A stretch of 64,000 bases of DNA from Nitrospirota bacterium (GTDB lineage: Bacteria > Nitrospirota > UBA9217). How positions within the stretch are numbered: position 1 is the stretch's first letter; every line of letters starts with the position of its first letter. The notes under the pieces were generated by a model. It was not told the origin of the DNA. It searched no databases and worked only from the letters and a program-made list of their open reading frames with translations. Shown in pieces: positions 1-40,874 of this stretch. Location: positions 1,728,001 to 1,792,000 of the forward strand of contig CAWCKW010000012.1 of assembly GCA_963796285.1 (NCBI GenBank), in the 5' to 3' direction. The position numbers and the translations under genes were made by a program.

Positions 1-24
1 TCAGCCTGATCACGGTCTTCCGGT

Positions 25-2761: not shown

Positions 2762-4129
2762 GTGAAAATGAAAATTGCACTACTCATTACAACATTAAGA
2801 TTCAAAATTGCCCTCTTTATCGTTATTCTCCTTCTTATTACGGCCTCTCTTTTTTCTCTTATTACTGTCCAGACGATGAACAGGCACATTTTAGATGAAG
2901 TCATAAAAAGAGCGGAATCATTATGCAAAAGTACAGCCGCCCTGGCGCCATACAGCATTCTCTCCAGCGATCTCCTTGGGATAGACAACATCGTCTCTAA
3001 ACTTAAGGAAGCGAATACTGATGTGGAATATGTGGCGGTCACGAATGCCGAAATGAAGATACTGGCCCACACCGACATTGCCAGGCGGGGGGAACTATTC
3101 ATCCCCTCTCCCCGCAACACGTTCAAAGATTCCCAGGATGGCACTCGTGTTTATGAAGTTCAGCTCGCGACCGGAACGTTGCTGGAAATTGTTTCTCCGA
3201 TTCTTTTTGACGGCAAACAGATAGGCAACGTCATCATCGGGATCAATCAATCTGTTTTGCTCCACGCACGAGCCGAAACCCGGAGAAAGATCCTGGCCGG
3301 GTTCGGTATTACCATGCTCCTGGGCATCGGGTGCATCATCGTTTTGTCTTCTGTCATAACGCGGCCGATCAAGGAGCTTGCCAGGGGAGTCGAAGAACTC
3401 AAGCAGGGAAGACAAGCCGAGCTCAGGATTTATTCGCATGATGAACTGGGAAAACTGACCACAAGTTTCAACCAGATGACCGAACTGACCACGAAACAAC
3501 AGGCGAGGCTCGGCGCCTATGCAACCGAGCTGGAAGAGGCTTATGTCTCCACCGTCAAGGTGCTCTCCGCGGCGATCGATGCCCGCGATCCGTATACGCT
3601 CGGCCATTCCACGCGGGTGGCTGCATTAACGCGCAACATCGGAGCGGCTATAGGGCTCTCCCACCAGGAGCTTGAAGACCTGGAGATCGCCAGCCTGTTC
3701 CACGACGTCGGGAAATTGAAGACGCCCGACAGCGTTCTGCTCAAGGACGGTCCGCTGGACCCGCAGGAACACCGCGAGATCTCGAACCACAGCGAGAGCG
3801 GCGCCGCGATCCTGAGCAGGGCGCGGTCTCTTCAAAAATATATACCAGCGGTCAGACACCACCATGAATGGTTCAGCGGTGAAGGATACCCCGACGGACT
3901 GAGGGGAGACGACATACCCCTGCATGCGGCCATCATCTCCGTTGCCGACGCCTTCGATGCGATGACGTCCGCCCGGCCTTACAAAGACGCGCTTTCCCAT
4001 GAAGAAGCGCTTCAGGAGTTGGCCCTCTTTGCGGGGAGGCAGTTCAATCCCCGCCTAGTCGAGGTGCTTCACCAGGTCATCGGATCCCCTTCCTTGGCCG
4101 CGGAAAATATTCCGTTCCAAAAAGGATGA
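2762..4129 (+). CDS. Membrane sensor with HAMP and HD-GYP cyclic-dinucleotide phosphodiesterase domains
   Basis: Two TM segments flank a periplasmic domain. HAMP (ITRPIKEL..DELGKL), HDVGK and HHHEWFSGEGYPDGL motifs. Confidence 0.9.
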   Translation: MKMKIALLITTLRFKIALFIVILLLITASLFSLITVQTMNRHILDEVIKRAESLCKSTAALAPYSILSSDLLGIDNIVSKLKEANTDVEYVAVTNAEMKILAHTDIARRGELFIPSPRNTFKDSQDGTRVYEVQLATGTLLEIVSPILFDGKQIGNVIIGINQSVLLHARAETRRKILAGFGITMLLGIGCIIVLSSVITRPIKELARGVEELKQGRQAELRIYSHDELGKLTTSFNQMTELTTKQQARLGAYATELEEAYVSTVKVLSAAIDARDPYTLGHSTRVAALTRNIGAAIGLSHQELEDLEIASLFHDVGKLKTPDSVLLKDGPLDPQEHREISNHSESGAAILSRARSLQKYIPAVRHHHEWFSGEGYPDGLRGDDIPLHAAIISVADAFDAMTSARPYKDALSHEEALQELALFAGRQFNPRLVEVLHQVIGSPSLAAENIPFQKG

Positions 4130-4132
4130 TCC

Positions 4133-4822
4133 ATGCGAGCCTTTAGCCCATTGGCCTTGACGATATTCTGCGCCTGTCTGATCGCGTTTGCACCATCGTG
4201 CTCGTTTAACCGGGCGTTAACAGAACCCGCCGGAACCGAAAAAAAGGCGGTCCATGATACGGCCGGACCGGCCAAGAAGGCTATCGATGATACGGCCCGA
4301 CAGCCCCAGAAGGCGGTCGATGATACGGCCAGACAGGCCCAGAAGACGATCGAGGATACAGCCAGACAGGCCCAGGCGGAAATTGCCGGCGGCGATTACA
4401 AAAGGGCGTTCGAACTCTACTCCAGCGCCTATGAAATAAATCATACTCCGGAAATGCGCGATAAATATACCGCAACCGGTGAACAGATCAGGAAGACCGC
4501 GGACCTGGCGTATCAGAGAAGGGATTTCGCGGAAGCCGGTACCATTTACAGCACACTGATCGAAAGCGGCATTACCAAGCGGGATTTTGCCGGTTCTCTG
4601 TCGTTCGACCAGGAGTACCTGAACGGGCAGATGCATGCATGTTCCAAGACGCTTTTGGAGGCGGGCATGACGGCCTATCGCGACGGCAAACTCGAGGACG
4701 CTATTTCCATCTGGAAGAAAGCCCAGGCATTCGACCACGATAACAAAGAGATCAAGGGCGCGATCGAGACCGCCACAACCCAGCTCCAGAACTTGAAGAC
4801 TATAAAAAAACAAATTCCTTGA
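4133..4822 (+). CDS. Exported TPR-like (lipo)protein with 11-aa tandem repeats
   Basis: Signal peptide with Cys, TPR-like helices (AISIWKKAQAFD), starts 3 bp after the HD-GYP gene. Confidence 0.7.
   Translation: MRAFSPLALTIFCACLIAFAPSCSFNRALTEPAGTEKKAVHDTAGPAKKAIDDTARQPQKAVDDTARQAQKTIEDTARQAQAEIAGGDYKRAFELYSSAYEINHTPEMRDKYTATGEQIRKTADLAYQRRDFAEAGTIYSTLIESGITKRDFAGSLSFDQEYLNGQMHACSKTLLEAGMTAYRDGKLEDAISIWKKAQAFDHDNKEIKGAIETATTQLQNLKTIKKQIP
4241..4372 (+). repeat. Four imperfect 33-bp coding tandem repeats
   Basis: KKAVHDTAGPA / KKAIDDTARQP / QKAVDDTARQA / QKTIEDTARQA. Confidence 0.85.
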
Positions 4823-4831
4823 TCCCGTAAT

Positions 4832-5537
4832 TCACGCTTTTCCGTCAAGATAGTTCCTTCTTTTCCCTTCGGGGAACCTCTCAATGGCATAGCGCAGCAT
4901 GGTACGCGGCATCTTTTTGTAATGCTGCTTCAAAAACCGCTCTTCCGCCCGCAGGTCGCGTTTGCCGATCTCGCGCAGCATCCATCCAACTGCCTTGTGG
5001 AGGAGATCGTGATCGTCCTCCAGCAGGATTTTCGAAATCCTGAGCGTATCATCAAAATCATTCTGCCTGATAAACGCAAATGTCGACAAGATCGCGATCC
5101 GTCGTTTCCACAGATCATTTGATTTCGCGAACGCATAAAGCGGTTTCCTGCTCTTGTCCAGAAGATAGGTCCCGAAGATGTTCGGCGCGGAGAGATCGAC
5201 GAGGTCCCAGTTGTTGATATACTGCGTGCTCTTGAGGTAAAGGCCATATATCCTCTTTTTCAGCGCCTCGTCACCTTTCGCAAACCGATCGACGAGCATC
5301 AGAAGAGCGAGCAACCGTTCTTCATGGTGCTGTGACGCAAGAATTTTTTTTATCTCCTCCAGAGGCGTGTCCTGAAATTCCTTTGCCACCCTCCGGATGT
5401 CCGGAACCACGACCCCCAGAAAAAGGTCCCCTTCCCCGTACTCCCCGGGTCCGGTCTTGAAAAAGCCCTGGAGGACGCCTGGCCTTTTCCTTGGTCGCGA
5501 ATTGTCGCAATCGTTTCTGGATTTTTGGTGCGATCAT
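4832..5537 (-). CDS. DNA alkylation repair protein, AlkD-like (frameshift near the 5' end)
   Basis: INNWDLVD, LWKRRIAI, HKAVGWMLREIGK and MPRTMLRYAIE motifs. The N-terminus lies in the 5322..5537 frame. Confidence 0.85.
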
Positions 5538-5783
5538 GGCAGGCTCCGTGAAGAGGTCAAGTTCTGATAATAATATATCAGATGAAGTTTCTGGTCGATA
5601 ATGACGAATTAGTAAAAAGATAAAATATCACACGAAGGCACAAAGGGCACAAAGAAAAACTATTTATTATGAAAAGGTGTCCCCTCTCCGTGCTTCGCGG
5701 CTCAGTGTGGCCCTCTTTTTGGCCATTGCGTGAGTCAATACTTTTATGACTTTGCCAATAATGGGGCCGCTTTTTCAAAAAAA

Positions 5784-5810
5784 ATACCCCGCAGCAAGCT
5801 GACGGGGTAT
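5784..5810. terminator. Palindromic hairpin downstream of the Ig-domain gene
   Basis: ATACCCCG-cagcaagctga-CGGGGTAT, with an A-run on its left that reads as a U-tract on the minus strand. Confidence 0.55.
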
Positions 5811-5848
5811 CTGTTTATTAGCTTCTCCCCCATGCAGGGGAGAACACA

Positions 5849-6796
5849 CTAATTTACCGTGATATCAAGGGTTCCTGCTACTGCCGTAATGGGGTCTGTT
5901 GCCGTTATGGTGGCCGTACCGGGGCTGACCCCGGTGACAAGACCTGTTGTGTCTACCGTTGCAATCGTGGTATCTGAAGAGCTCCAGATCATGGATGAAG
6001 TTATGACCGCTGTTGTCGCATCTCCATAGGTTCCTGTCGCAGTCAACTGCGCCTGAGTTGACCCGGTCGTAATGCTGGTATTATCCGCAGTCACCGCAAT
6101 GGATGAGAGGGCGGTATCGGTCACGGTGAGCACAGTTTCGGCGACGAGTTGCGGATCGCTGGGGACCCTAATTGCATCACCCTCAATAGCGGTTATGGTG
6201 ACGGGTATCCCGGTGACGGACCCTGCCGTGACGATGCCTGTTGCATCTACCGTTGCGATCGCGTCGTTAGATGAAGTCCAGGTCATATATGACGTCACGA
6301 TCTGCGTAGGCGAAACCCCGCTTGACAGTTGAGACAACGTTGCAGTGGCCGTAAACTGAAACGTGGTATTAACTGCCATGCTGGGACTGACCGGCGTTAC
6401 GTCAATGGCGCTTACCGTGCAGTCGGTGACTGTGGTGGAACCGGATACATTCGTGTGTGAATCGGTCTCCGTAGCGGTAATTGTGATTGTTCCGGTTACG
6501 GCGCCTGCGGTGGCTGAGGGTGCAGTGACGAGCCCCGTTGAATCTACCGTTGCGATCGCGTCGTTCGATGAGGTCCAGGTCAGAAAAGACTCTAAAAACG
6601 TGACCCCGTCCGACAACATCCCTGTTCCCGTGAGCTGGAGCGTTGTGCCAATGGCCATGCCGGTGTCGGCAGGGGTTATCGTGATCTCGCTTAAATGACT
6701 TTTCGTTCCACAGCTCATGAAACCTATGGCGCTCATTGCAAGCACCGCGACAGTAACAATACAAACGTGAAGAATCTTCGTGAACCTTTTTTTCAT
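5849..6796 (-). CDS. Lipoprotein with three bacterial Ig-like (Big_2) domains
   Basis: MKKRF... signal peptide ending in GFMSC. Three repeats of W-[TS]-SS-[ND]-x2-IATVD-x-TG-[LI]-VT. Thr/Ser rich. Confidence 0.85.
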   Translation of the reverse strand: MKKRFTKILHVCIVTVAVLAMSAIGFMSCGTKSHLSEITITPADTGMAIGTTLQLTGTGMLSDGVTFLESFLTWTSSNDAIATVDSTGLVTAPSATAGAVTGTITITATETDSHTNVSGSTTVTDCTVSAIDVTPVSPSMAVNTTFQFTATATLSQLSSGVSPTQIVTSYMTWTSSNDAIATVDATGIVTAGSVTGIPVTITAIEGDAIRVPSDPQLVAETVLTVTDTALSSIAVTADNTSITTGSTQAQLTATGTYGDATTAVITSSMIWSSSDTTIATVDTTGLVTGVSPGTATITATDPITAVAGTLDITVN

Positions 6797-7096
6797 GTTT
6801 TCTCTCATCCTTGCAGGTGGGGTCGCGATTATTTCGGGTGCTGTTGACACGGCACAAAGGATTTGGTTACACAACAGAAGTAACTGTCCCCCCAAACTCC
6901 CCTTTCAGGCAACTACCCGACGGTCACCCGTTTCTCGCGGATCAATATACCATAAATTGGCCCCTATATCCAGTATTTATCACCTCTATGGGCCGCCTGT
7001 TCGGGACCTGCGTCCCGGCAATGGGATACTGCAGTTGCGGAAACAATCCGGGCGCAGAAGTATGTCAATATTCTGCGCCCGGGTTGTTTCGTTATA

Positions 7097-19644: not shown

Positions 19645-21300
19645 TCAGGGGGATTTTTTTCCACCAACCGTATTCTCCGGTTCATACTTCACCCAGACAG
19701 AACCGGACACATCCTCGAACGCTGTCATGGCCGCGACGGAGCCGTGCGCGACCGCGACAACGATCTGCTTCGGCGCGCCGGTGATGTCGCCCGCGGCATA
19801 GACCAGGGGAATTGATGTGCGCATGGTCATCAGGTCGGTCTTGATGTATCCCTCATCGTCAAGCTCTAGTCCAAGCTGCTTTGCGATCTCGTTCTGCGGA
19901 ACATACCCGATGGCCACAAACACGCCGTCTGCGGGCATTTCCGTTATCTTGCCGGTCTTTTTGTCCTCGATCTTGATTGCTTTTACGATCTTATCACCGG
20001 AGATCTCCCTTACTTCACTCTCCCACAGAGCCGGGATGCCTGAACGCTTGAAACTCTCCTGCAGCTTTGCCTCGGCGCGCAGCGTATCTCTCCGGTGTAC
20101 CAGTATGACCTTTGCCCCCAGATTGTGAAGATACAGCGCGTCGGTAATGGCCGTATTGCCGCCTCCTACCACGATCACGTTTTTTCCGTCCTTGAAGAAA
20201 TACCCATCACACGTGGCGCAGTAGCTTACCCCCCTGCCGTAGAATTTCTGCGCTCCTGTTGCTCCGAGCGCCCGGTTGTCAACCCCGGTCGCGATCACCA
20301 GTCCTTTGGTGATATAGATGGCATGGTTCGTCTTGAGCTGGATCCTGCCGTCCTGCCGGTCCTTCGTGATCTCGGTTATATGTTCGCCGATGTGAAGCTC
20401 GCAATACTGGGCCGCCTGCTGCGCGATGAGATCAATGAGACTTCTCCCTCCGATGCGCATATAGCCGGGATAATTCTCCACCACCGGCGTGATCGTCACC
20501 TGTCCGCCGAGATTGTTTTTTTCGATCACCACGGAATTGAGCCCCGCCCGCACGGCGTATATCGCGGCCGTGAGCCCAGCGGGACCGCCGCCCACGATGA
20601 CAAGGTCCTTTTCCACCGGCTCCCCGGTGATCTGGGTGGATGCCACGAGCGGCTCTTTGAGGGTCAGAAGAGATTCCAGGAACAACGGCTCCGGCTGAAG
20701 TCCGGCGCCGGTGAAGGTAGTGTTCATGAATGTCTGCGGCACGGCAAGGGAGCCGAGGCTTTCCGCAAGGTCCTGGTTCTCGTAGATTTCGACGGCCTCT
20801 GCAGAGACAAGGTCGGGCCTGGCGATCGCTGCGGAGAATGCGGACAAGACCTGCTGCGGGCAATAAGGGCAGGTGGGGCTGACAAAAACCTGGATGTCCC
20901 GCTTTTCATGGAGCTGTTCAACGATCTTCTGGATCGACGGTCCGGACAGAAGCGGTTTGCCCGTGGAGGCCATCACAATGGCGGTGAGGAAAGAACGTCC
21001 CTCTTCCCCCAGGGGGGCGCCCGTATACCGAATGCGGTATGCATCCGGGGCGATGAGGACCGATGGTGAGCGAGTGACATTTCTCTTCACGGACTGCTCG
21101 TCGCCGATCGTATGAAATGACACCTTCAACTTCGCCGAGAGTTCGGCAAGCGTCTTGACCAGCGAGACCACGGCCTCGTTGTACTTGTCGTTTTTAGTAT
21201 CCTGGGTATAGACCTCGAGAACGACGTCTTCCTTGAGCGTCTCCAGAAACGTTTGCTTGATGGTCTGTTTGATATCTTCCGGGATTAGTTCCTGTGCCAT
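19645..21300 (-). CDS. trxB: Thioredoxin reductase with an N-terminal AhpF-like thioredoxin-fold domain
   Basis: N-terminal domain with CPYC, followed by GGGPAG, CATCD, GGGNTA and AAGD motifs. Confidence 0.9.
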   Translation of the reverse strand: MAQELIPEDIKQTIKQTFLETLKEDVVLEVYTQDTKNDKYNEAVVSLVKTLAELSAKLKVSFHTIGDEQSVKRNVTRSPSVLIAPDAYRIRYTGAPLGEEGRSFLTAIVMASTGKPLLSGPSIQKIVEQLHEKRDIQVFVSPTCPYCPQQVLSAFSAAIARPDLVSAEAVEIYENQDLAESLGSLAVPQTFMNTTFTGAGLQPEPLFLESLLTLKEPLVASTQITGEPVEKDLVIVGGGPAGLTAAIYAVRAGLNSVVIEKNNLGGQVTITPVVENYPGYMRIGGRSLIDLIAQQAAQYCELHIGEHITEITKDRQDGRIQLKTNHAIYITKGLVIATGVDNRALGATGAQKFYGRGVSYCATCDGYFFKDGKNVIVVGGGNTAITDALYLHNLGAKVILVHRRDTLRAEAKLQESFKRSGIPALWESEVREISGDKIVKAIKIEDKKTGKITEMPADGVFVAIGYVPQNEIAKQLGLELDDEGYIKTDLMTMRTSIPLVYAAGDITGAPKQIVVAVAHGSVAAMTAFEDVSGSVWVKYEPENTVGGKKSP

Positions 21301-25772: not shown

Positions 25773-26072
25773 TTATTTCATTTTGGAAAGAAGATATATC
25801 GACATCTCATATTTCTTTCCTTCTTCTTTTTTCACGGCCTGATAGAAATCACACTTTTCACATTGTCCATACTTCGCGGCAAAAGTACCCTGCACCTTTC
25901 CACCGCACAACGAACCCGCTATTATCCAGCACGCTCTCCCGGCATTTTCGCCTCCATGAACGCCATCCAATCGTTGCTCCTTCGAAGCCGGGCAGACACC
26001 AAGATCCTTTTCGTGTTCTCCTCCCTTTGTCCGGCCGCATTTTTTAACTTCCCAGCAGTTTCGTTTCTTCAA
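25773..26072 (-). CDS. Two-CW domain small Cys-rich protein (start uncertain)
   Basis: NCWEVKKCGR...CPA...GRACWIIAGSLCGG...CEKCDFY. Confidence 0.8.
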   Translation of the reverse strand: MKKRNCWEVKKCGRTKGGEHEKDLGVCPASKEQRLDGVHGGENAGRACWIIAGSLCGGKVQGTFAAKYGQCEKCDFYQAVKKEEGKKYEMSIYLLSKMK

Positions 26073-26190
26073 TACTGAAATCCTCCTTTTATTACTACTC
26101 AATAGCTCATGAGATTATAAAAATCAAGTAAAAAAACAATCTTCTTTATACTATTTGCAATGTTTGAGAATCATGAGGGAATAGGTTTCC

Positions 26191-28115: not shown

Positions 28116-29824
28116 CGATCTCTCCTGTCAGGCCTTCAACCGTAAACGGCCTGCCGTCATATTTGTGAATGTGTCCTGAAAATTCAAATCCCGTCTCGCT
28201 TCGCATTAAACGGCTGAATTGTCCCGTTGCATTGTTCTCCACGCAAAGGGGAAGTTTTGCCCGTTCGAGGAACTTGACATAGTCGAAGCGCTCCCGGATG
28301 CGGAAGGGGGAAAACCTCACTGAAGTGAAGCATGGCGATGCTCGTTGTAGTTGCCAGGGCGTCGACCGCCTCTTTCATGACGCCGTACGTTGAACCCCAT
28401 CCCGTCAGGACAACGCGAGGGTCATGATCGCCATAGAGGAACGGCGGCGCGATCTCTTGTCTGATAAGCGGCAGCTTTTTGAACCACCGCTTCTCCACCA
28501 TGTTGACCCGCGTCAATGCGTCCTCGACAATATGACCTTCTTCGTCATGCTCGTCGCTGTCCGTGACCACGAGGTGCCTCGCGTCCCCGGGGACTCCGAG
28601 GGGGCTGATCCCGGTGTCGGTATAGGCGTGCCGCTTGTAGCTGGAAAGTTTTTTAAACGCATCTCCCCGCAGACGATGGTCCTGGTATCGTAGTTTACTC
28701 ACATCGAATCCTTCAAACGTCCACTGAGTGTCGGCAAGATACGTGTCGAAAAGAATAAAGACCGGTATCTGGTACTTTTCCGCAAGGTCGAAGGCCTTGT
28801 TCGTGAGAAAGAACGCCTCGCGAGGCGTACCCGGCGCGAATATCACGCGAGGAAACTCCCCGTGTCCTGCGGAAATGAGGAACTGGAGTTCGCCCTGCTC
28901 GGTTCGCGTCGGGAACCCCGTCGCCGGTCCCGGCCGTTGCCCCATGGCTATCACCACGGGCGTCTCGGTCATGCCCGAGAGTGAAAGTCCCTCGACCATG
29001 AGGGAGAAGCCGCCGCCCGATGTGCCGGTCATGGCGCGCACACCGGCAAAGGACGCGCCGAGAGCCATGTTGATGGCGGCGATCTCGTCCTCGGCCTGTT
29101 CCACGACAACACCGTATTCCTTTTCCTTGGTCGCGAGATAGTTCATGATGCCTGTCGAAGGCGTCATGGGGTAGGCGGAATAGAACTTACACCCCGACGC
29201 CAGTGCGCCGAGGGCGATGGACTCAACGCCTCCAACGAGCAGCAGGGCTTTTGCCGATCCCTCAGTACGGACGGAAAAGTTGCACGTGAGGCACCCCTTG
29301 ATTGCATGGTCATGGCCTGCCATGGCCGCGTTCTTGTTTGCGGCAACGACCTTATCGCCTTTTTTCACGAAGGTCTCGGCAATGAGGCCCATCAGGATAT
29401 CAAGGTCCATCCCCAGCATGCCAAGGACCGCTCCCGTTGCTACCGTGTTCGCCATGATCCTGTCGCCGCCATGCTCCATGGCAAGCTTCTCAAAAGGGAT
29501 GTCGAGAAATGCGGGTTTGTCGTGCTTTTCCTTGAGCGTCTCTGAATCGTAGATGATCCGGCCACCGGAGGTGAGCTCACGCTCGTGGAGCCGGAGACTC
29601 TCCTTGTCCAGGGCAACGATAATGTCGATTGCTTCCCGGGGCGCCGAAACCGGCCTGTCCGAAAACCGTATCTGGTAGAAATTGTGCCCGCCGCGGATGC
29701 GCGATTCATAATCCTGGTTCGTGAAGACATGGTGTCCCGAGCGGGCAAAAACATGTCCCAGCGTGTCACCGATCGTCTGGATTCCCTGTCCTGCTTCTCC
29801 GCCGATCTTGATGGAATAATCCAT
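28093..29824 (-). CDS. korA: 2-oxoacid:ferredoxin oxidoreductase alpha subunit, gamma-alpha fusion (frameshift near 28306)
   Basis: GGEAGQGI, SRIRGG, YPMTPS, QAEDEIAA and QRPGPATG motifs. C-terminus ENNATGQ...YDGRPF lies in the 28093..28320 frame. Confidence 0.93.
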
Positions 29825-30028
29825 AATTTCCTCTTTCCGAGACGGTATTGATGGGTGGTTACTAAAGATTCAGGTTCACCTCATAGTGAGAAGAAGAATT
29901 GCAATCATTTTGACTGGATAACAATAGCAACAGGATTCCGGAATGTAGCGAAGAAAGAACCCCGATCTTATCCTACTAGTCACGTTAAAGACTTGTCAGC
30001 TCTGGCTTGAGCAGGTAAGGATACGACC

Positions 30029-30358
30029 TTACCCGATATCTTCTATCGTGATCCCGCCGGATTCGAGGAGTTGCGAAAGAAGAACAAACCCTCCGCAGGG
30101 CAGTGCTGCCCGGTTCTGCATAAAGTCGCAGTCATGTTCATAAAAATCACAGGCAGTGCACATTTTATTAACAATCAACTCTGCGGTAGCGGGTGCAAAC
30201 TCACATCGATGGCCATCGAGAACCAGGCTTTTCCCTTCACGCAGGCACCTTTCCACAACAGTATAACCCCTGCAAGCCAGCGCTTCGTTCTTGTCAGGCT
30301 TATAATAGGTGCAGTATTGTGAACAGAGCGTTCGTTCCAACGGCTTTTTTATTCTCAT
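30029..30358 (-). CDS. Cys-rich hypothetical protein divergent from the radical SAM gene
   Basis: 109-aa ORF with CSQYC, ACRG, CTACDFYEHDCDF and PCGG motifs; TATAAT just upstream. Confidence 0.7.
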   Translation of the reverse strand: MRIKKPLERTLCSQYCTYYKPDKNEALACRGYTVVERCLREGKSLVLDGHRCEFAPATAELIVNKMCTACDFYEHDCDFMQNRAALPCGGFVLLSQLLESGGITIEDIG

Positions 30359-30390
30359 TGTTTCGTATTATAACAAAATACAGGGTACAG

Positions 30391-30399
30391 TGCTATAAT
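30391..30399 (+). promoter_or_regulatory. Extended -10 promoter, implying a leaderless radical SAM mRNA
   Basis: TGCTATAAT ends 7 nt before the ATG at 30406 and no SD sequence is present. Confidence 0.6.
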
Positions 30400-30405
30400 A
30401 ACACC

Positions 30406-31536
30406 ATGAATTACTATTTTACACGACGGGCTGTCCTGAAATGGCTCGAGACCCCGTCTGTTTATCAGATCGCAAAAGACGAATTATACGAACTTGACAG
30501 CGCATCATTCGACTTTTTTAAGAACTGCGCTTCAGAGGACGGGTGCGCCTCAAAGGACAGCGCGTTCATAGACTACTGTCTGGAGGAGGGGCTGCTGACG
30601 ACAACGCCGGGTGCGGTCAAACGGCCCGCTCTCAAACAAGCCCCTGAACCGTCACTTCGCTACCTTGAACTCCAGATCACCGACGCCTGCAACCTCAGAT
30701 GCAAACACTGCTATATCGGTGATGCCGGCCGGAATGAATTGACGCCGGAACAGGTGGAAAAGGTTTTGCGCGAATTCGAGAGGATGCAGGGTCTGCGCGT
30801 ACTGATAACCGGAGGCGAACCGCTGGTTCACAAAAATTTCCACGAGATCAATGAGATGCTCCCTGATTTTTTCATCAGAAAGGTCCTCTTCACGAACGGG
30901 GTGCTTCTCAATAGAGAAAAGCTGAAAGTCCTCAAGGTCGACGAGATCCAGGTGAGCGTGGATGGACTTGAACCTGCCCATGACAAGCTCCGCGGAAACG
31001 GGACATTCAAGCACTCCCTGGATGCAATGAAACACGCGCTTGACGCAGGCTTCGATGTATCAGTGTCTACCATGGTCCATCAGTACAATCGAGCGGACTT
31101 CGACAGCATGGAACAACTTTTCAAGGGAATGGGTATCAAGGATTGGACCGTGGATATTCCCTGTGCGACCGGCAGACTGAAAAATAACGCGGAGCTGTAT
31201 GTCAGCCCCGAGGAAGGCGGGAGGTATCTCGGCTACGGTTATGGGAACGGACTCCATTCTTCCACGCAGGGGTATGGCTGCGGCCTCCATCTCATGGCGG
31301 TGATGGCTGATGGGGGCATCGCTAAATGCACATTTTACGGGGCCCAACCCGTGGGCACCGTGGAGCATGGCCTTCAAACAGCCTGGAGTAAAATCCATCC
31401 GGTCATGCTGAAGGACCTGGAGTGCGACTGCGAGTACCTTGAAGTATGCCGGGGAGGGTGCCGGTACCGGGCGGAGCTTATCGACGGAAAAGGTGGAAAA
31501 GACCTTTACCGGTGCATGCTGTATGGTATAATATAA
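30406..31536 (+). CDS. Radical SAM/SPASM-domain protein with an N-terminal RRE/PqqD-like extension (putative peptide maturase)
   Basis: CNLRCKHC, TGGEP, VSVDG and C-terminal C..(GGIAK)C...CDC...CRGGC...C. About 80-aa N-terminal extension. Confidence 0.9.
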   Translation: MNYYFTRRAVLKWLETPSVYQIAKDELYELDSASFDFFKNCASEDGCASKDSAFIDYCLEEGLLTTTPGAVKRPALKQAPEPSLRYLELQITDACNLRCKHCYIGDAGRNELTPEQVEKVLREFERMQGLRVLITGGEPLVHKNFHEINEMLPDFFIRKVLFTNGVLLNREKLKVLKVDEIQVSVDGLEPAHDKLRGNGTFKHSLDAMKHALDAGFDVSVSTMVHQYNRADFDSMEQLFKGMGIKDWTVDIPCATGRLKNNAELYVSPEEGGRYLGYGYGNGLHSSTQGYGCGLHLMAVMADGGIAKCTFYGAQPVGTVEHGLQTAWSKIHPVMLKDLECDCEYLEVCRGGCRYRAELIDGKGGKDLYRCMLYGII

Positions 31537-31628
31537 GCTAAGTCAGGTACCTGTTTAGATTGATGCTCTCCGATTAAAACGATATGTTTTAACAATCAGA
31601 TCATGTATGCAAGAAAGGAGGTCTTCCG

Positions 31629-31691
31629 ATGACTATTAAAAAGGTAACGAAAAAAATGGCAGTCACGTGCAAGTGTAAAAGTTCCTGCTAA
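31629..31691 (+). CDS. 20-aa Cys-tipped peptide, putative RiPP precursor (MTIKKVTKKMAVTCKCKSSC)
   Basis: Strong SD AAGGAGGT 6 nt before the ATG; lies between the rSAM stop and a terminator. Confidence 0.75.
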   Translation: MTIKKVTKKMAVTCKCKSSC

Positions 31692-31717
31692 GAGTGATAA
31701 ACGATCTAGGTAATACG

Positions 31718-31745
31718 AGCCCGGCATGGAATGTCGGGCTTTTTT
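31718..31745 (+). terminator. Rho-independent terminator after the peptide gene
   Basis: AGCCCGGCA-tggaa-TGTCGGGCT followed by TTTTT. Confidence 0.85.
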
Positions 31746-31815
31746 ATTCCACTTCGAATGACAGATGCACTGTTTACCTGTTTCTATCAGCTGTCAGGTA
31801 TGCTCGTAGAGGATT

Positions 31816-32772
31816 ATGACGCCTATTGAGATGCGGAGATCGGACGAAACGAGACGCAGGCCTGTGCTCCTCATCGGCGGCAAGGGCGGAGTGGGCAAAA
31901 CGACCTGTTCTGCTGCGATCGCCGTGCAGCTCGCGTCCCGAGGTCTTAGAACGCTGATCATCACCTCCGACCTGACCCCCTCGCTGTCCGATGTCTTTGA
32001 AAAAAAGATCGGCGACACCATCACCACGATAGACGAAAATCTTCATGCCTATGAGATCAGCCAGGACGCCATCGCAAGCCGGTGGAAGAGCAAATTCGGA
32101 CCCGACTTCTATGATATCCTCGCCCACCTCATCGAGGTGGACGCGCTCGACGCTGAATCGCGCCATCAGCTTCTTGACTACATCGGGTCCGCTCCATCCC
32201 TGCGGGAAGAGACCATGCTCGACATCATCATGGAGATGGCGGGGAGCAGGGGGTATGACCGGGTCGTCTGGGACACCGCGCCTGCGGGTGAAACGCTCAA
32301 CCTCCTCGGCATGCCGAAGAACATCAGGAAGCATCTCCGGGCCGGCGCAAAGGTCTACGAGGGACTGGACAGGATCGGGAAACAGCTCAGCGGAAAACGC
32401 TCTATTGCGGGCATCATGGACGAGTGGACAGCATTGTCAGAAAAAATCAGTCGATTCATTCACGAGAAGTCAATGTTCGTTATCGTGGCAAATCCCGAGG
32501 CCCTGGTGGTGAACCAGGCCCGCAGGCTCATGACGACCCTCCTGGAATACAATCTCACGGTCCACGGCATGATCATCAACCGTGTGATCGAACATCCTGA
32601 TTCGGCATCACTTGCAGCGATCCGGGAAACTCAGAAAGGGCATATCGAGGAGCTGAGAAGGATGGCGGGAGAACGTACCGTTGTCACCCTCCCCTTTTCG
32701 TTCAGCGAGATCACGGGAGTGAGACAGCTTCAGGATATCGGGAAAAGGCTCGCAGCCGGGCTCTCGCTGTAA
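31816..32772 (+). CDS. ArsA/GET3-family ATPase (single domain)
   Basis: GGKGGVGKTT deviant Walker A, SLSD, DTAPAG switch II and IINRV motifs. Confidence 0.9.
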   Translation: MTPIEMRRSDETRRRPVLLIGGKGGVGKTTCSAAIAVQLASRGLRTLIITSDLTPSLSDVFEKKIGDTITTIDENLHAYEISQDAIASRWKSKFGPDFYDILAHLIEVDALDAESRHQLLDYIGSAPSLREETMLDIIMEMAGSRGYDRVVWDTAPAGETLNLLGMPKNIRKHLRAGAKVYEGLDRIGKQLSGKRSIAGIMDEWTALSEKISRFIHEKSMFVIVANPEALVVNQARRLMTTLLEYNLTVHGMIINRVIEHPDSASLAAIRETQKGHIEELRRMAGERTVVTLPFSFSEITGVRQLQDIGKRLAAGLSL

Positions 32773-35499: not shown

Positions 35500-35673
35500 G
35501 TTTCCTCCGATACAAGTAATGAAACGTTATACATAACCCGGACAAACCGGAACCAACTTTTCCCTAAACTGCGCAACGACATAAAAACTTAAACCGCGTA
35601 CATGAGACTGCACACGCTGCATGAATTATTTCATGTTGTTGTTTCTTTGCGGCTGCTTTACGCTTGTATCCTC

Positions 35674-36625
35674 TTACACGAACAATGAGCTGAGCGATGT
35701 TTCCTCGTGGATCCTCTGTGATCGCGTCGGCAAGGAGCTGTGCCACGGAAAGCACCGTCAGCTTCTTGCATTCCTGCTGTTTACTGTCAAGCGCGATAGT
35801 GTTCGTCGTGATCAGCTCTTCGAGCGTCGATTCATTAACGCGCTTGATCGCCGGGCCCGAGAGCACCGCGTGCGAACAGGCCGCGCTGATCGTACCCGCC
35901 CCGTTGGCCTTGAGCGCGGCAGCGCCTTCGGTCAGCGTTCCGGCGGTGTCCACCATGTCGTCCAGCAGCAGGCAGTCATGCCCTTTAACATCGCCGATAA
36001 TGTGCATGACCTGCGCCTCGTTCGGTTTGTCCCGCCGCTTGTCAATGATCGCAAGCGCCGCATTGAGCCGCTTGGCGAATGCACGCGCCCGCTCCACGCC
36101 GCCGGCGTCGGGCGAAACGACGGTCAGATTGTTGAACTTCTTCGACCGAAGATACTCGAGGAGCACCGGTGCGGCAAACAGGTTGTCCACCGGGATATTG
36201 AAGAAGCCCTGTATCTGGCCCGCATGCAGGTCCACGGTAAGGACCCGGTTTGCGCCCGCGGTCGTGATCAGATCGGCCACGAGCTTGGATGTGATCGGGA
36301 CACGCGGCTGCACCTTCCGGTCCTGCCGGCTGTATCCGTAATAGGGGAGCACCGCTGTGATGCGGGTCGCCGACGCCCTCTTGAGCGCATCTATCATGAT
36401 CAGCAATTCCATGAGGTTCCGGTTCACCGGGCTCGCCGTGGGCTGTACGACGAAGACGTCCATGCCGCGCACGTTGTCCACGATCTGGACATTGATCTCG
36501 CCGTCGCTGAACCGGCCTACCAGCGCGTTCCCAAGCGGGATGCCCATCTTCTGGCAGATTTCCTTTGCCAGTGCCTGGTTTGCGTTACCCGAAAAAATCT
36601 TTATTTCCCGTGATCTCACCATCAT
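35674..36625 (-). CDS. prs: Ribose-phosphate pyrophosphokinase (frameshift about 12 codons from the end)
   Basis: FSDGE, YSRQDRK, DLHAGQ, SPDAGG and DDMVDTAGT motifs. The canonical ending [13 protein letters not shown] is in a shifted frame. Confidence 0.96.
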
Positions 36626-36650
36626 CTCATTCTTCCTCTTTTCCGAATAC

Positions 36651-36724
36651 TGGTTCGGGGACAGGGATTCGAACCCCGATAAAAGGCTTCAAAGGCCTCT
36701 GTCCTACCATTAGACGATCCCCGA
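36651..36724 (-). tRNA. tRNA-Gln(UUG)
   Basis: TCGGGGATCGTCTAATGGTAGGACAGAGGCC-T-TTG-AAGCCTTTTATCGGGGTTCGAATCCCTGTCCCCGAACCA: D-loop TGGTA, TTCGAATCC, encoded CCA; usual position upstream of prs. Confidence 0.96.
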
Positions 36725-36948
36725 TCAAAGGCCGACTCCGGGCCTGGCCACGGGCAGGATAAGCCCCGTTAGAGAACAACGGCGAAATGAAACAAGTCCT
36801 TTTGCCGACGAGAACTATCCAATCAAAGAGACGTTCAACCTGGACGAAAGCGGGCTGCATGCTCGAACGCGGTAAACATCAAAGGATAGGCAGGCGCCTA
36901 TCCTCTCGTATCAGATGCAGAATCGGCAATACGTATATCAATAGGTTC

Positions 36949-37251
36949 TTATCGCTCTTCGGAAACTTTCGGCGCTTGTTCCCGCTGTGTGGGATTGGCC
37001 AGCTCACTTTCGTATTCAGCAAGGACCTTCTTTTCTATCATCTGCCTCGTCTCGCTGTTCAGCGGATGGGCGATGTCCTTGAATGTCCCGTCCTTCATCT
37101 TGCGGCTCGGCATGGCCACAAACAATCCAGCGTTGCCGTTTATAACGCGCAGATCCCTGATCAGGAACACGTTGTCGATTGTTATGGTTGCATAGGCCTT
37201 GAGTCGCTCTTCATTATTGACCGGGAAAACCCTCACTTCCGTGATGTCCAT
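36949..37251 (-). CDS. spoVG: SpoVG
   Basis: MDITEVRV, LKAYA, GLFVAMPSRK and DIAHP motifs. Confidence 0.96.
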   Translation of the reverse strand: MDITEVRVFPVNNEERLKAYATITIDNVFLIRDLRVINGNAGLFVAMPSRKMKDGTFKDIAHPLNSETRQMIEKKVLAEYESELANPTQREQAPKVSEER

Positions 37252-37326
37252 AGACTCCCCTTCATACAGAAGACAGAAGAAGCGTGGTTATATGGTAGAT
37301 CCTGAATATCCCGGAACGACGTACAG

Positions 37327-38196
37327 CTATCCCGCATGAAACTCCGCGAGCGGTGATTCGGTCAATGTTTTCACAGGATAAAGCCTCCATCCCTCAGGGG
37401 AAAGGCCATCCGCGGCGGCCCGGCATGCGGTCTCGGTCTCAAATATGCCGAAGACCGTCGGTCCGCTTCCGCTCATGAGAGCGCCCACGGCCCCCCGGTC
37501 CAAAAGTGCGGCTTTGATCCTGTTGATCACCGGGTGAGCGGCCGCGGTAACGGACTCAAGATCGTTATGGAGCCCTAGGGCGATATTGCGGAGATTAAGC
37601 CTTGAGATTTTATTACAGCCAGCTTTTTTTGTCAACCTCAAATTTACATTATTGTAGACCCAGGCCGTGGAGGTCTCAAACCCCGGATTGACGAGTAAAA
37701 CCCGGAATTGCGTCAACGGGGGCAGTTCCGTGAGGATTTCTCCCCTCCCGCGGGCAATGGCCGTCGGCCCATAAAAGAAAAAAGGCACATCCATGCCGAT
37801 GCGGGCGCCGATCTCAGCCAGCCGGTCACGGTCAAGGTCCATGCCCAGCAGCCTGTTTGTTGCCGCGAGCACGGCCGCGGCATTGCCGCTCCCTCCACCG
37901 AGCCCCGCTGCGACCGGAATATTTTTTTTGATCTCGATAGCCAGGCCGGCCTTCTTACCGGAGATCCTGAGCATTTCCGCTGCCGCCTTCCATGCAATGT
38001 TCCCCTCCCCGGAGGGTACGGCACGGCTGTCACATCGCACGCTGATGCCCGTTCCGCCGATCGACACGGTCACCTCATCGAAGAGCCCCACCATCTGCAT
38101 CAGCATTTCCACGTCGTGGTATCCGTCCGGTCTCCTGCCGAGCACGGACAAACAGAGATTGATCTTCGCCGGAGACTGAAGCGTGATCGTGTTCAT
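37327..38196 (-). CDS. ispE: 4-(cytidine 5'-diphospho)-2-C-methyl-D-erythritol kinase
   Basis: PAKINL, DGYH, IPVAAGLGGGS and MSGSG motifs. Confidence 0.96.
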   Translation of the reverse strand: MNTITLQSPAKINLCLSVLGRRPDGYHDVEMLMQMVGLFDEVTVSIGGTGISVRCDSRAVPSGEGNIAWKAAAEMLRISGKKAGLAIEIKKNIPVAAGLGGGSGNAAAVLAATNRLLGMDLDRDRLAEIGARIGMDVPFFFYGPTAIARGRGEILTELPPLTQFRVLLVNPGFETSTAWVYNNVNLRLTKKAGCNKISRLNLRNIALGLHNDLESVTAAAHPVINRIKAALLDRGAVGALMSGSGPTVFGIFETETACRAAADGLSPEGWRLYPVKTLTESPLAEFHAG

Positions 38197-38966
38197 GGTA
38201 CGTCTGCCCCCTGATCCGAAAGCGTAAACGCATCGTCAGTAATGGGCATATTCACATCCACTTCGGCGTACTCGATCGTGATCGTCACGCCCTTCGCGGG
38301 ATTCTCTATAATGATGGTCCTGGGCAAAAGAACATGCGATACTTCCTGCATGCGTTCATACCGTATCCGGTACACAAGTGTGTTCGACCGGTAAAGCTCT
38401 TCAACAGCGATCCTGACCGCCGCCGGCGTTGATGAAGGAGGCAGCACATGGATGCGCCGCACCGTGTCCGCCTCAGGCAGTTCGATCACGCAGGAGCTGT
38501 TCTGCGTGCAGAACACCCGTGCGTCCAAGGGCCGGGAGATCTCCGTGATCGTGCCGGAGAAGATGGCACAGAGGTCCTTAGCCTCCACGCTCATACCGAG
38601 AAGTTTCTCGATCCCGGCCTGTCCAGGTTTCATGATCCTGTCGTCGTCCTGCATGCGCAGCAACACGTCGTTGCCGTCCCATACAAGCGCGATGAGGGAC
38701 TGACCCAGGGGCCCGACGGCTTCCACCCGGAGCCTGCGCTGGGCGTCGAGCACGATACCCACTGTATCGAAAAAGCGTTTTTTCCCCCGCCTGACCACCT
38801 CAACGCTCGCGATCGCCCTAAGTCCGGTGAAGGACTGACGCTGCGCCTCCAACGCCCTGACGAGCGGACCGGCAGGGACCTCGGTCCCGGGAATCTCGGT
38901 TTTTTTAGGGAGACACGAGAACAGAAACAGCACAGCAATGAGGGCGATGAGTCGGCGGGACTTCAC
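38193..38966 (-). CDS. Lipoprotein of LolB/LolA-like fold (DUF4292-like)
   Basis: Lipobox LFSC; occupies the lolB position between the TPR gene and ispE. Confidence 0.65.
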   Translation of the reverse strand: MKSRRLIALIAVLFLFSCLPKKTEIPGTEVPAGPLVRALEAQRQSFTGLRAIASVEVVRRGKKRFFDTVGIVLDAQRRLRVEAVGPLGQSLIALVWDGNDVLLRMQDDDRIMKPGQAGIEKLLGMSVEAKDLCAIFSGTITEISRPLDARVFCTQNSSCVIELPEADTVRRIHVLPPSSTPAAVRIAVEELYRSNTLVYRIRYERMQEVSHVLLPRTIIIENPAKGVTITIEYAEVDVNMPITDDAFTLSDQGADVP

Positions 38967-40711
38967 TTCTTTCCTTTTTTCCTCGGTTTCACGTCCTTGA
39001 GCAGGTCATCGGGATTCCCGAACCGTGCCTCCTTGAACTTCTTGCGGAGCTTTTGGTTCGTGGGATCGATCTCCAGGGCCTTGAGCCACTGAGTTCTGGC
39101 ATTGTCCTTTTGGGAAAGCTTCAGGTAAATGTCTCCGAGGTGCTCGCGCATCACGGGGTCCTCATCAATCTTCGCGACCGCCTTTTTCATGACATCCAGC
39201 GCCTCGTTCAGCATTCCCTTCTGATAATAGGCCCAGGCAAGGCTGTCGAGGATGTAGCCGTTATCGGGCTTGACCAGGAGCGCACGCTTGATGAGCTGTA
39301 TCGACTCGTCGAGGTTCTCTCCCTTTTCGGCATAGGAATAACCCAGGTAGTTCAAGGCGTCCGCGTCGTCCGGCTTGAGTTCGATCGTCTTTTTGAGCGT
39401 AGCAAGCATCTCGTCGCGCTTGCCCTGCTTTTCATATGCGATGGCCAGACTGAACAGCAGGTCGTCCCGGTCGGGCGCCATCTGAAATCCTCTGATCAAG
39501 GTATCAACGGCCTGCTGGTATTTTTCAACGTCCATATACGCATTGGCAAGATACAGGTACAGCTCCGGTTTCCCGGGCTGTTCGGCGAGGGCTTTCTCCA
39601 GAAGCGGTACGGCTTCCGCGGTCCTGCCCATCTGCGCATAAAGGTATGCGATCTGCAGGACCAGGTCAGTGTCCTCGGGCGCGGCTGACAGGAGGGCCTG
39701 ATATTCCGCGAGCGCCTCCTCATACCGTTCCACGGCCACCAGAGTTGAGGCAAGGTAACGCTTGACCCTCAGGTCCTTTGGCAAGGCGCGCGAAACGGTC
39801 TCGAATGCCTCCACGGCCTCTCCATACTTCTTCTGCTCGGCATAGATGAGGCCCATCTTGACAACAGCGTCATAGTTATTAGGATCCATGGCAATCACCC
39901 GTTTCAGCTGTTCCAGTGCTTCTGGAAGCGCGTTCTGCTGAATATAGAGCTGGGCGAGGTGCTGCTGGATTTCGGAGTTGTGGGGATTGAGCTCGATGGC
40001 TTTTTTATATGCCACGATGGCGTCCCCCACGTTGTCCATCAGCTCATAGACGAACGCCATGCCGATGTATGCCGGCTCGAAATCGTCCCGGATGGAGATC
40101 GAGCGTTTATATTCAGCCAGCGCTTCCTTATACATCTGCCGCTCTGTGTAGATCCGGCCGAGATAATAGGGTGACATGAGCAAGGCGGGATTGATTTTAT
40201 CGAGGGCATGGAATGTCTCTACCGCTTCATCGTAGCGCTTCATAGATGCGTACAGTGAACCAAGATAGAGGTAGGCGTCCTCCTGCTTCGGATTGGCCGC
40301 GATGACCTTGCGGTAGGTATTCACTGCATCGTCAAATTTCTTTTTGCCCGTATAGATGGTGGCAAGGATCATGAGCGGCTGCGGGTTGTCCGGCTGGAGC
40401 TCCGCCGCCTGCTGCGCAAAACGGGTTGCCTGGTCGAGTTCCCCCTTGCGGAGATAAAGGGACGCGAGAGAGATCGCGACTTCAGCCGCGATCGGATCCA
40501 GCCGGAACGCTTCTTCATATTCCTCTATGGCAGCATCGAACGCTCCACCCTCTTCGGCGATACTGCCGCGCATAAAATGGTAATAGGCATCGGCCTGGGT
40601 ACGTTCTTCGGAGCTCATCCTGGCGGATGCGGTTTCAGGCATCCTGACGGAAAACCCGGCGCAGGAAGAAACAAAAAGGGACAAGGAAAGAATCAATAAG
40701 ATCTTTTTCAT
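38963..40711 (-). CDS. Multi-TPR lipoprotein
   Basis: Lipobox VSSC, many TPRs, ALNYLGYS, ILDSLAWAYY and EHLGDIY motifs. Confidence 0.9.
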   Translation of the reverse strand: MKKILLILSLSLFVSSCAGFSVRMPETASARMSSEERTQADAYYHFMRGSIAEEGGAFDAAIEEYEEAFRLDPIAAEVAISLASLYLRKGELDQATRFAQQAAELQPDNPQPLMILATIYTGKKKFDDAVNTYRKVIAANPKQEDAYLYLGSLYASMKRYDEAVETFHALDKINPALLMSPYYLGRIYTERQMYKEALAEYKRSISIRDDFEPAYIGMAFVYELMDNVGDAIVAYKKAIELNPHNSEIQQHLAQLYIQQNALPEALEQLKRVIAMDPNNYDAVVKMGLIYAEQKKYGEAVEAFETVSRALPKDLRVKRYLASTLVAVERYEEALAEYQALLSAAPEDTDLVLQIAYLYAQMGRTAEAVPLLEKALAEQPGKPELYLYLANAYMDVEKYQQAVDTLIRGFQMAPDRDDLLFSLAIAYEKQGKRDEMLATLKKTIELKPDDADALNYLGYSYAEKGENLDESIQLIKRALLVKPDNGYILDSLAWAYYQKGMLNEALDVMKKAVAKIDEDPVMREHLGDIYLKLSQKDNARTQWLKALEIDPTNQKLRKKFKEARFGNPDDLLKDVKPRKKGKK

Positions 40712-40874
40712 GATTGTAAGTCTAATCGAACGAATAGTGTGTGTCAAGGAGACCGTCCTCTGATTGATGTGTCATTATTTTTTTAAAGCTGTTCAGTTCT
40801 GTATGAGACAAGGCAGTACGTTGAGAGCAAAAAGAGACAAGCTGCGGATACTGTTTTGGCCTGAGCAGATATAA

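Follow-up and report, generated by a model that had tools for sequence, protein, structure and literature searches.

The closest described relatives of the system considered here are peptide maturases of the radical S-adenosylmethionine (SAM) class, namely SkfB from a sactipeptide pathway, CteB/Tte1186 of the SCIFF ranthipeptides, and SuiB, the enzyme of streptide. SuiB and SkfB carry an N-terminal RiPP recognition element (RRE; RiPP, ribosomally synthesised and post-translationally modified peptide), and SCIFF peptides are about 45 amino acids (aa) long and contain six cysteines. A second group of related pathways makes pyrroloquinoline quinone (PQQ), with PqqA as precursor, PqqE as enzyme and PqqD as accessory protein, and mycofactocin, where MftA, MftC and MftB fill the same places and the precursor core is Val-Tyr. 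Here we describe a locus that resembles both groups. It lies in a stretch of 64,000 nucleotides (nt) from a Nitrospirota bacterium (contig CAWCKW010000012.1; the whole stretch is called the window, and all coordinates are those of the window unless a locus is named), and it consists of a gene for a radical SAM/SPASM-type enzyme, a 20-codon gene downstream of it, and a divergent gene upstream of it for a cysteine-rich protein, which we call the partner. The enzyme, peptide and partner genes co-occur, are linked and are sometimes fused, and we consider it likely that they form a three-gene radical SAM peptide-modification system with an intracellular product. Its class would be that of radical SAM peptide modification, with a precursor family and an accessory protein that are both new.

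With SkfB, CteB and SuiB the system shares what looks like the three-domain layout of the enzyme, a structural alignment over its full length and a short cysteine-bearing peptide gene that adjoins the enzyme gene. It differs from them in that the 20-residue peptide is near-invariant across phyla, and in having a dedicated cysteine-rich partner that is sometimes fused to the enzyme, and no exporter or protease. Membership in SCIFF finds no support, as the peptide matches no NCBIfam family at E values up to 0.01 and no SCIFF maturase family is among the best 25 NCBIfam matches of the enzyme. With PQQ and mycofactocin, the locus has in common a tiny precursor whose C-terminal core is invariant, a SPASM-like radical SAM enzyme accompanied by a small, sometimes fused accessory protein, a housekeeping-like retention, the lack of export genes, and precursor genes that are overlooked by gene callers. 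However, PqqE is only a distant match of the enzyme in the PDB (1.2e-13), the enzyme scores 83 bits against the MftC family TIGR03962, whose cut-off is 265, the partner does not have a PqqD-type fold in Pfam, NCBIfam or structure searches, no further tailoring enzymes are conserved, and the core is based on cysteine rather than on Glu/Tyr.

A further comparison is offered by CrpC of Methanococcus voltae. According to its description (PMC13692751), CrpC is a SPASM radical SAM enzyme with an RRE from a strict anaerobe, belongs to TIGR04463, and installs ranthionine links on CrpA, a large cysteine-rich repeat protein, with a suggested cellular role in iron and sulfur supply. The likeness lies in a radical SAM enzyme that looks RRE- and SPASM-like, a strictly anaerobic way of life and a cysteine-rich candidate substrate, whereas TIGR04463 is not among the best 25 NCBIfam matches of our enzyme, the candidate substrate is a 20-mer, and the cysteine-rich protein looks like a subunit. 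In the literature outside subscription journals and supplements, no description of the peptide or of the trio was found.

The 20-codon gene and its putative transcript

The locus is made up of the following features, each given with the evidence on which it was called.

30029..30358, minus strand: partner gene, 109 aa, with seven invariant cysteines (ORF and translation)
30359..30405: divergent intergenic spacer of 47 bp with two outward-facing extended -10 boxes (sequence, consensus scan)
30406..31536, plus strand: radical SAM/SPASM-type enzyme gene, 376 aa, ATG at 30406, stop at 31534..31536 (translation, Pfam)
30406..30660, plus strand: RRE-like N-terminal domain of the enzyme, residues 1-85 (model fold)
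Residues 90-235 of the enzyme, plus strand: radical SAM core (Pfam Radical_SAM)
31279..31515, plus strand: seven-cysteine auxiliary-cluster array of the enzyme, C292..C370 (cysteine motif)
31505..31532, plus strand: promoter-like site for the peptide gene (TTTACC, 16 nt, TG-n-TATAAT; consensus match only)
31615..31622, plus strand: Shine-Dalgarno (SD) sequence AAGGAGGT of the peptide gene, its GGAGG ending 7 nt before the ATG at 31629
31629..31691, plus strand: 20-codon peptide gene, MTIKKVTKKMAVTCKCKSSC* (translation, conservation, coding signature)
31717..31747, plus strand: intrinsic terminator-like hairpin (31717..31741) and T run

An original prediction, made from the sequence alone, had seen a spacer of 92 bp behind the enzyme gene, a strong SD, an open reading frame (ORF) at 31629-31691 and a terminator, and had proposed the encoded peptide as the enzyme's substrate. 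All four elements are where that prediction put them, with 92 nt between the enzyme stop and the peptide ATG. The partner gene at 30029..30358 on the minus strand sits just upstream of the region that it covered and was no part of it.

The 20-codon ORF is a real gene that has hitherto gone unannotated. Its product, MTIKKVTKKMAVTCKCKSSC, has a Lys-rich, leader-like half followed by a C-K-C-x-x-S-C tail. To search for such genes we defined them loosely, by a start codon and 18-23 codons in all, a purine run resembling an SD, [IVL] as third residue, [KR] as fifth and C-x-C close to the end. This definition picked out exactly one ORF in the 64-kb window, that at 31629..31691. Applied to loci anchored on the enzyme (431,099 nt), it found one ORF each in 53 of 66, or in 52 of 64 distinct loci, since L024 and L035 as well as L031 and L049 are the same contigs taken twice; in the loci of 51 paralogs (531,916 nt), it found none. 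Thirteen enzyme-anchored loci lack the ORF, five of them with a contig end near the gene (L029, L031, L049, L057, L062), and in genome G027 the peptide gene is present elsewhere, away from an enzyme locus that lacks it. An earlier motif filter that did not ask for leader and SD had, in 4 of the 51 paralog loci, picked up five unrelated cysteine-rich tails; these were discarded, none being left once leader and SD were added. Downstream of enzyme homologs in related genomes (28 loci), the ORF is found in 22 of the 25 loci with at least 100 nt of 3' DNA, and it is kept even where enzyme identity has dropped to 45%. The expectation that a conserved M-x-I-K-K...C-x-C-x3-C* ORF would be found beside homologous radical SAM genes was thus borne out across several phyla.

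The peptide genes also evolve like coding sequences. Among 40 twenty-codon genes, which represent 38 distinct DNA sequences, the entropy at codon positions 1, 2 and 3 is 0.59, 0.56 and 1.25, such that the third position is the most variable, and pairwise codon differences in the last eight codons are synonymous in 2034 cases and non-synonymous in 577. TAA, TGA and TAG are all in use as stop codons, and GGAGG-type sites precede nearly all the genes listed in the codon comparison. Four features of the peptide were not imposed by the search patterns. Its length is 20 codons, with 21 in Actinomycetota and one archaeon; all but one of 53 peptides have K at position 15, the exception being E (a C-E-C variant); position 19 is S with a single T; and position 17 varies between K, R, A, G, N and H. 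The core is thus C-K-C-x-x-S-C across phyla and domains, in 52 of the 53. The N-terminal half has the consensus M-x-I-K/R-K-V-x-K/R. No precursor family had been recognised in the peptide when it was first seen, and searches of NCBIfam (E up to 0.01) and Pfam agree, as neither returned a family match; four peptide sequences were looked up in a collection of 15 billion proteins, and all four were absent. In the archaeal genome of locus L050 (G404), C-K-C-H-S-S-C is encoded twice, once on contig C21 and once on C27, so that the peptide gene may be present in two copies.

The promoter-like site for the peptide gene lies inside the last enzyme codons and has 10 of 12 consensus matches plus the TG extension; its box, TGGTATAAT or TGGTATACT, in the codons for Y-G-I-I, recurs across the loci of the family. 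The hairpin behind the gene has 11 pairs, of which 6 are G-C, before its T run, and has a folding energy of -20.1 kcal/mol (z -3.15), a stability that 3 of 200 shuffled sequences reach. G+C-rich hairpins follow many of the peptide genes, even where partner and enzyme genes lie downstream (L052, L056). On account of the promoter-like site, the strong SD and the terminator, the peptide gene looks like a short transcript of its own that would be strongly translated. An Rfam search over 29800..32000 gave nothing credible; its only match, to NsiR1 across the terminator, stayed below threshold (19.6 bits, cut-off 39, E 0.84) and was taken as chance. A freshwater-sediment metatranscriptome (X20) holds a 762-nt contig of a relative, about 92% alike, that covers 30931..31691 and spans the 3' part of the enzyme gene, the spacer and the whole peptide ORF. 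This contig is a weak hint of expression, since DNA carry-over is possible, and it shows neither transcript end nor level. Two further RNA-labelled runs (X21 and X22) yielded nothing over the region.

On the other side of the enzyme gene, a promoter consensus scan flagged 30370..30399 within the divergent spacer. Here, the enzyme ATG has an extended -10 box, TGCTATAAT (30391..30399, plus strand), 6 nt ahead of it, and the partner ATG has another, TGTTATAAT (complement of 30367..30375), at a distance of 8 nt; neither gene is preceded by an SD in the sequence. Of 27 loci, counted after one false row had been dropped, 16 keep the enzyme-side box, 18 the partner-side box and 14 both. Because of the -10 boxes so near to the start codons and the missing SD, the enzyme and partner genes look like two back-to-back leaderless transcripts.

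Co-occurrence of enzyme, peptide and partner

A scan of 185,579 species genomes with the enzyme confirmed 588 relatives, and the best 80 of these 588 fall into 29 orthologs of 38-68% identity and 51 paralogs of 24-36% identity. The orthologs carry the labels Nitrospirota, Dehalococcoidia, Methanobacteriota, Syntrophaceae, Desulfobacterales, Desulfarculaceae, Geobacteraceae, Nannocystaceae and Actinomycetota. For a closer view, we sampled 401 genomes of the window's phylum and asked for the enzyme at E<=1e-60, the partner profile at E<=1e-8 and the peptide pattern C-K-C-K-x-x-C-stop. Of these genomes, 162 have the enzyme, 160 the peptide pattern and 156 the partner, and the reversed pattern, which served as control, matched 4 times. 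Enzyme and pattern coincide in 154 genomes (tables compared by hand), enzyme and partner in 150, with 12 genomes that have the enzyme only and 6 that have the partner only. Six genomes show the pattern without the enzyme, and here two matches end in TGG, two are chance matches in long ORFs, and two are true peptide genes. Among the pattern matches that we discarded, those in G139, G325, G277:C67 and G221:C41 fall within longer ORFs and were put down to chance, and those in G170, G226 and G481 end in TGG and have no stop codon. The three largest families of the sample have neither enzyme nor partner, with none among 76 genomes in f9, 28 in f10 and 40 in f17.

A candidate precursor gene thus travels with the enzyme, as is expected of a RiPP system. 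The strongest point for a system of three genes is that they are retained where they are not linked. In family f16, all 14 sampled genomes have enzyme, peptide and partner, and the enzymes of this family are recorded by their sources under Thermodesulfovibrio autotrophicus, T. obliviosus and T. aggregans. G080, a complete genome from this family, has the three genes scattered, at 855 kb, 1,000 kb and 1,056 kb, and the partner profile gave a match in each of five genomes with such a scattered arrangement.

A second sample of 301 genomes, from the phylum of the genome with locus L051, has the enzyme in 35, the pattern in 25 and both in 21. Ten enzyme loci were fetched from this phylum, and the peptide gene lies upstream of the enzyme in each of them. 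The ten include six of the 14 genomes that had appeared to carry the enzyme only, and all six encode variant peptides with the tails C-K-C-A-K-S-C, C-K-C-R-S-S-C or C-K-C-G-G-S-C.

Enzyme, partner protein and surrounding genes

The enzyme belongs to the radical SAM superfamily by its CxxxCxxC motif and by a core fold that aligns with many solved radical SAM enzymes; Pfam Radical_SAM (PF04055) matches residues 90-235 with 93.8 bits against a cut-off of 29.5 (1.7e-26), which leaves about 85 residues ahead of the core. It is on record only as "radical SAM protein", to which some sources add "with 4Fe4S-binding SPASM domain". Seventy-nine NCBIfam families match it, and since none of the best 25 reaches its curated cut-off (the top one scores 98 bits against 525), the enzyme stands outside the named families among these. 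Across 19 orthologs, the cysteines C41, C95, C99, C102, C292, C308, C342, C348, C352 and C370 are invariant, C41 being in the N-terminal domain, and C340 is conserved in at least 90%. The SPASM array of seven cysteines for two auxiliary [4Fe-4S] clusters reads CX9-15GX4C, CX2CX5CX3C and C, and the C-terminal part of the enzyme reads C292-x10-G-x4-C308, C340-x-C342-x5-C348-x3-C352 and C370, such that one spacing differs, at C340-x-C342, where relatives show C-x2-C or C-x4-C. The motif of the core (C95-x3-C99-x2-C102), the array C292..C370 and the N-terminal extension, put at about 80 residues and found to be about 85, agree with what the original prediction had read from the translation.

An AlphaFold2 model of the enzyme (pLDDT, the predicted local distance difference test, 82.8) has low confidence at residues 343-354, and folds residues 3-60 into four strands followed by two helices, at a pLDDT of about 90. 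The best Foldseek matches of this model are peptide maturases, with SkfB at the top (2.8e-15), followed by CteB and SuiB, and SkfB is also the best match by sequence in the PDB (4.6e-24). VIA-align places SuiB on the model with a Z of 25.2 over 337 residues (model 3..376) and SkfB with a Z of 24.0 over 7..336, and it aligns viperin-type structures to residues 81-351 only. As regards a PqqD-like, winged-helix domain at the N-terminus, the SuiB and SkfB alignments start at model residues 2-7, and the Pfam PqqD model has no match in residues 1-85. The N-terminal 80 residues and the C-terminal array appear to follow the three-domain layout of peptide maturases. The Pfam PqqD and SPASM models fail to match, and the two domains, here called RRE-like and SPASM-like, are supported by fold and motif only.

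The partner has invariant cysteines at positions 12, 16, 29, 67, 70, 77 and 88 (alignment of 20 sequences) and matches nothing in Pfam or NCBIfam. In the loci of the family, it adjoins the enzyme gene divergently in 21 of 28 (tblastn). Its profile, which includes its own hits, matches in 39 of 56 ortholog loci, i.e., 38 of 54 distinct ones, six of these matches being weak half-size forms; half-size forms with only 3-4 cysteines are found in Actinomycetota, Dehalococcoidia and an archaeon. In Desulfobacterota-type loci, the order is peptide, partner and enzyme on a single strand. A model of the partner is all helical (pLDDT 82.9), and VIA-align found no structural match for this fold among 48,161 chains (best Z 3.9). 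In the ESM Atlas, the partner falls into clusters of "hypothetical protein" only, and its profile retrieves 259 clusters from 1.84 billion representatives, nearly all of them stand-alone proteins of 100-140 aa. In seven loci (L051, L055 and L165-L169), the partner domain is fused to the N-terminus of the enzyme in one ORF of 502-536 aa, and three independently called representative proteins of 416-506 aa likewise have it ahead of a Radical_SAM domain. Because of these fusions we regard the partner as a probable subunit of the enzyme and not as its substrate, and radical SAM enzymes may have in it an accessory subunit of a new type. A protein of 474 aa (P0043) carries the partner domain at its C-terminus (368-471), behind response-regulator, PAS and HisKA_3 domains; either this fusion is genuine or the ORF was miscalled. 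The window also encodes a two-CW-domain protein of 109 aa (25773..26102, minus strand; NF045718, 110 bits against a cut-off of 35). It was rejected as a relative of the partner, with which it has only a 10-residue C-x2-C-D-F-Y stretch in common (hhalign probability 5.8%).

With respect to the genes around the system, a survey of 75 flanking proteins from 16 loci found no flanking family conserved across phyla, and no protease, exporter or immunity gene is conserved near the system in the surveyed loci, which extends to the wider family what had been noted of the window, that no protease or exporter is adjacent. An ATPase of the ArsA/GET3/TRC40 family lies directly after the terminator (31816..32772, plus strand; TIGR00345, 183 bits against a cut-off of 135). 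It was dismissed as a member of the system, since it is conserved in 2 of 28 family loci, namely the window and one close relative. Genes for rubrerythrin and a 2-oxoacid:ferredoxin oxidoreductase recur in Nitrospirota-type loci only and may be plain synteny. Peptide genes that are not linked to the enzyme often lie just upstream of genes read, from N-termini and from Pfam hits on relatives, as TPR lipoprotein, ispE and prs, and the same cluster is present in the window at 35564..40747. In locus L149 (G184:C1), an unlinked peptide gene (4020..4082, minus strand) is divergent from a CopA-like P-type ATPase (4476..6878, plus strand), which was recognised by its N-terminal metal-binding motif only. 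A link of the peptide to copper was rejected, as no more than one of the nine unlinked peptide loci has a CopA-like neighbour. In three loci, from three phyla, a flavin amine-oxidase-type gene (PF01593) is found less than 2 kb from the system, and it could encode a tailoring enzyme or be there by coincidence:

L047, 3921..5450: flavin amine-oxidase-type gene, Dehalococcoidia label
L050, 627..2078: flavin amine-oxidase-type gene, Methanobacteriota label
L055, 8848..10380: flavin amine-oxidase-type gene, Nannocystaceae label

Elsewhere in the window, 19645..21300 (minus strand) encodes a 551-aa fusion of a protein-disulfide-oxidoreductase-like N-terminal half and a thioredoxin-reductase-like half that resembles AhpF and stays below the AhpF cut-offs.

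A probable peptide-modification system and its alternatives

From co-occurrence and architecture, we infer that the peptide is the substrate of the enzyme. In the mechanism that we propose, the peptide would be made at high level from its own short transcript, and its Lys-rich half would dock on the RRE-like N-terminal domain of the enzyme. The radical SAM core, together with two auxiliary Fe-S clusters held by the seven-cysteine array, would then modify the C-K-C-x-x-S-C tail. The sulfur of a cysteine may become joined to a carbon of a neighbouring residue, to give one or more intramolecular thioethers of the ranthipeptide or sactipeptide type, with the near-invariant K15 and S19 as possible acceptors; any free thiol left over could bind a metal. 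The partner would work physically with the enzyme, either as an accessory metal- or Fe-S-binding subunit or by helping to hold the peptide. The product would remain inside the cell and have a housekeeping role in strict anaerobes, in metal binding, in a redox function or as a cofactor, and would not be an antibiotic; the near-invariant core, the lack of export genes and the retention of scattered genes speak for a cellular function rather than for chemical warfare. Thioether cross-links are suggested here as the likeliest chemistry because the nearest enzymes act on their peptides in that way, and we put this chemistry forward tentatively, as a proposal that leans to the doubtful side.

Several points weigh against the system as we read it. 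The enzyme occurs without the pattern in 8 of 162 genomes and without the partner in 12 of 162. Two of the eight genomes are only 63-65% complete and one has the gene at a contig end; however, G009 (L023, 98% complete) and G013 (L025, 100%) have an enzyme of 61-62% identity and neither the peptide pattern nor the partner, and because the enzyme persists there without them, it may have another substrate in these two genomes. The co-occurrence tables show a pattern and not a probability, and they overstate the support, because the genomes are related. The regular expressions required parts of the motif, such that C14, C16 and the leader positions are invariant in part by construction. Residues 1-85 and 289-376 of the enzyme, searched against Pfam at E values up to 10, match no family, the PqqD/RRE and SPASM models included. 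A peptide of 20 residues has only about 12 left for a leader, the seven invariant cysteines of the partner would equally fit a substrate, and the sacti- or ranthipeptide type of the predicted chemistry is a guess from the enzyme class only. Both G009 and G013 come from the window's own family, and in both a rubrerythrin-like gene lies downstream of the enzyme gene.

Other explanations have to be set against these data. The peptide could be left unmodified and act as a mini carrier or scaffold that binds metal, sulfur or an Fe-S cluster, with enzyme and partner acting on another substrate. The three cysteines within seven tail residues, the persistence of the enzyme alone in G009 and G013, and occasional neighbours related to metals (the ArsA/GET3-type ATPase of the window, an ArsP-type permease in L052 and the CopA-like ATPase in L149) would fit this, but such neighbours are not conserved, with the ArsA-type gene in 2 of 28 family loci and the CopA-like gene in 1 of 9 unlinked loci, and the closest full-length structures of the enzyme are those of peptide maturases, so that we hold an unmodified carrier to be improbable. 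It is also conceivable, though the chance is small, that the partner and not the 20-mer is the substrate, with the peptide as an accessory factor. Here, CrpC and CrpA provide the precedent of a SPASM enzyme that acts on a cysteine-rich protein (PMC13692751), and the partner has seven invariant cysteines and is present alongside the enzyme in 150 of 162 genomes. Its fusion to the N-terminus of the enzyme in seven loci fits a subunit better, however, half-size forms get by with only 3-4 cysteines, and the model shows a folded helical protein that has no repeats and no layout of leader and core. Moreover, the leader-like half of the peptide and the RRE-like domain of the enzyme would be left unexplained.

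That the locus encodes an ordinary secreted RiPP, an antimicrobial or a signal whose exporter and protease are encoded elsewhere, is suggested by the enzyme class, which is best known from bacteriocin-type RiPPs, as the matches to SkfB, CteB and SuiB bring to mind. We give this very little weight, because the core hardly changes across phyla and domains, unlike antibiotics, which evolve fast, entire families have the genes in single copy and almost without exception, transporter, protease and immunity genes are not conserved in the neighbourhood, and the peptide gene sits in a housekeeping synteny (TPR-ispE-prs as read) in several lineages. The shortness of the ORF and the terminator directly behind it would also suit an ORF that arose by chance or a regulatory leader peptide that serves transcription attenuation, an idea whose probability we regard as close to negligible: the amino acid sequence is kept through synonymous change, the paralog control gave no hit in 531,916 nt, the genes downstream differ by lineage and are often on the opposite strand, and the ORF co-occurs with the enzyme even when the two are not linked.

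The three-gene peptide-modification system therefore remains the reading that we prefer. A bolder version of it, which is unlikely to hold in full, is that the trio makes a peptide-derived cofactor or a metal-binding prosthetic molecule with a cross-linked C-K-C-x-x-S-C core, that this would be a third kind of such molecule beside PQQ and mycofactocin, present in bacteria and archaea, and that the partner would represent a new type of Fe-S or metal-binding subunit. As cultured species of Thermodesulfovibrio carry the system, the question is directly testable. If the proposal is true, whole lineages of organisms that avoid oxygen would make a modified mini-peptide that is invisible in annotation, among them Nitrospirota of the Thermodesulfovibrionia type, part of a Desulfobacterota-type phylum, some Actinomycetota, Dehalococcoidia and archaea, and it would lie in territory that genomics-led cofactor discovery has rarely reached.

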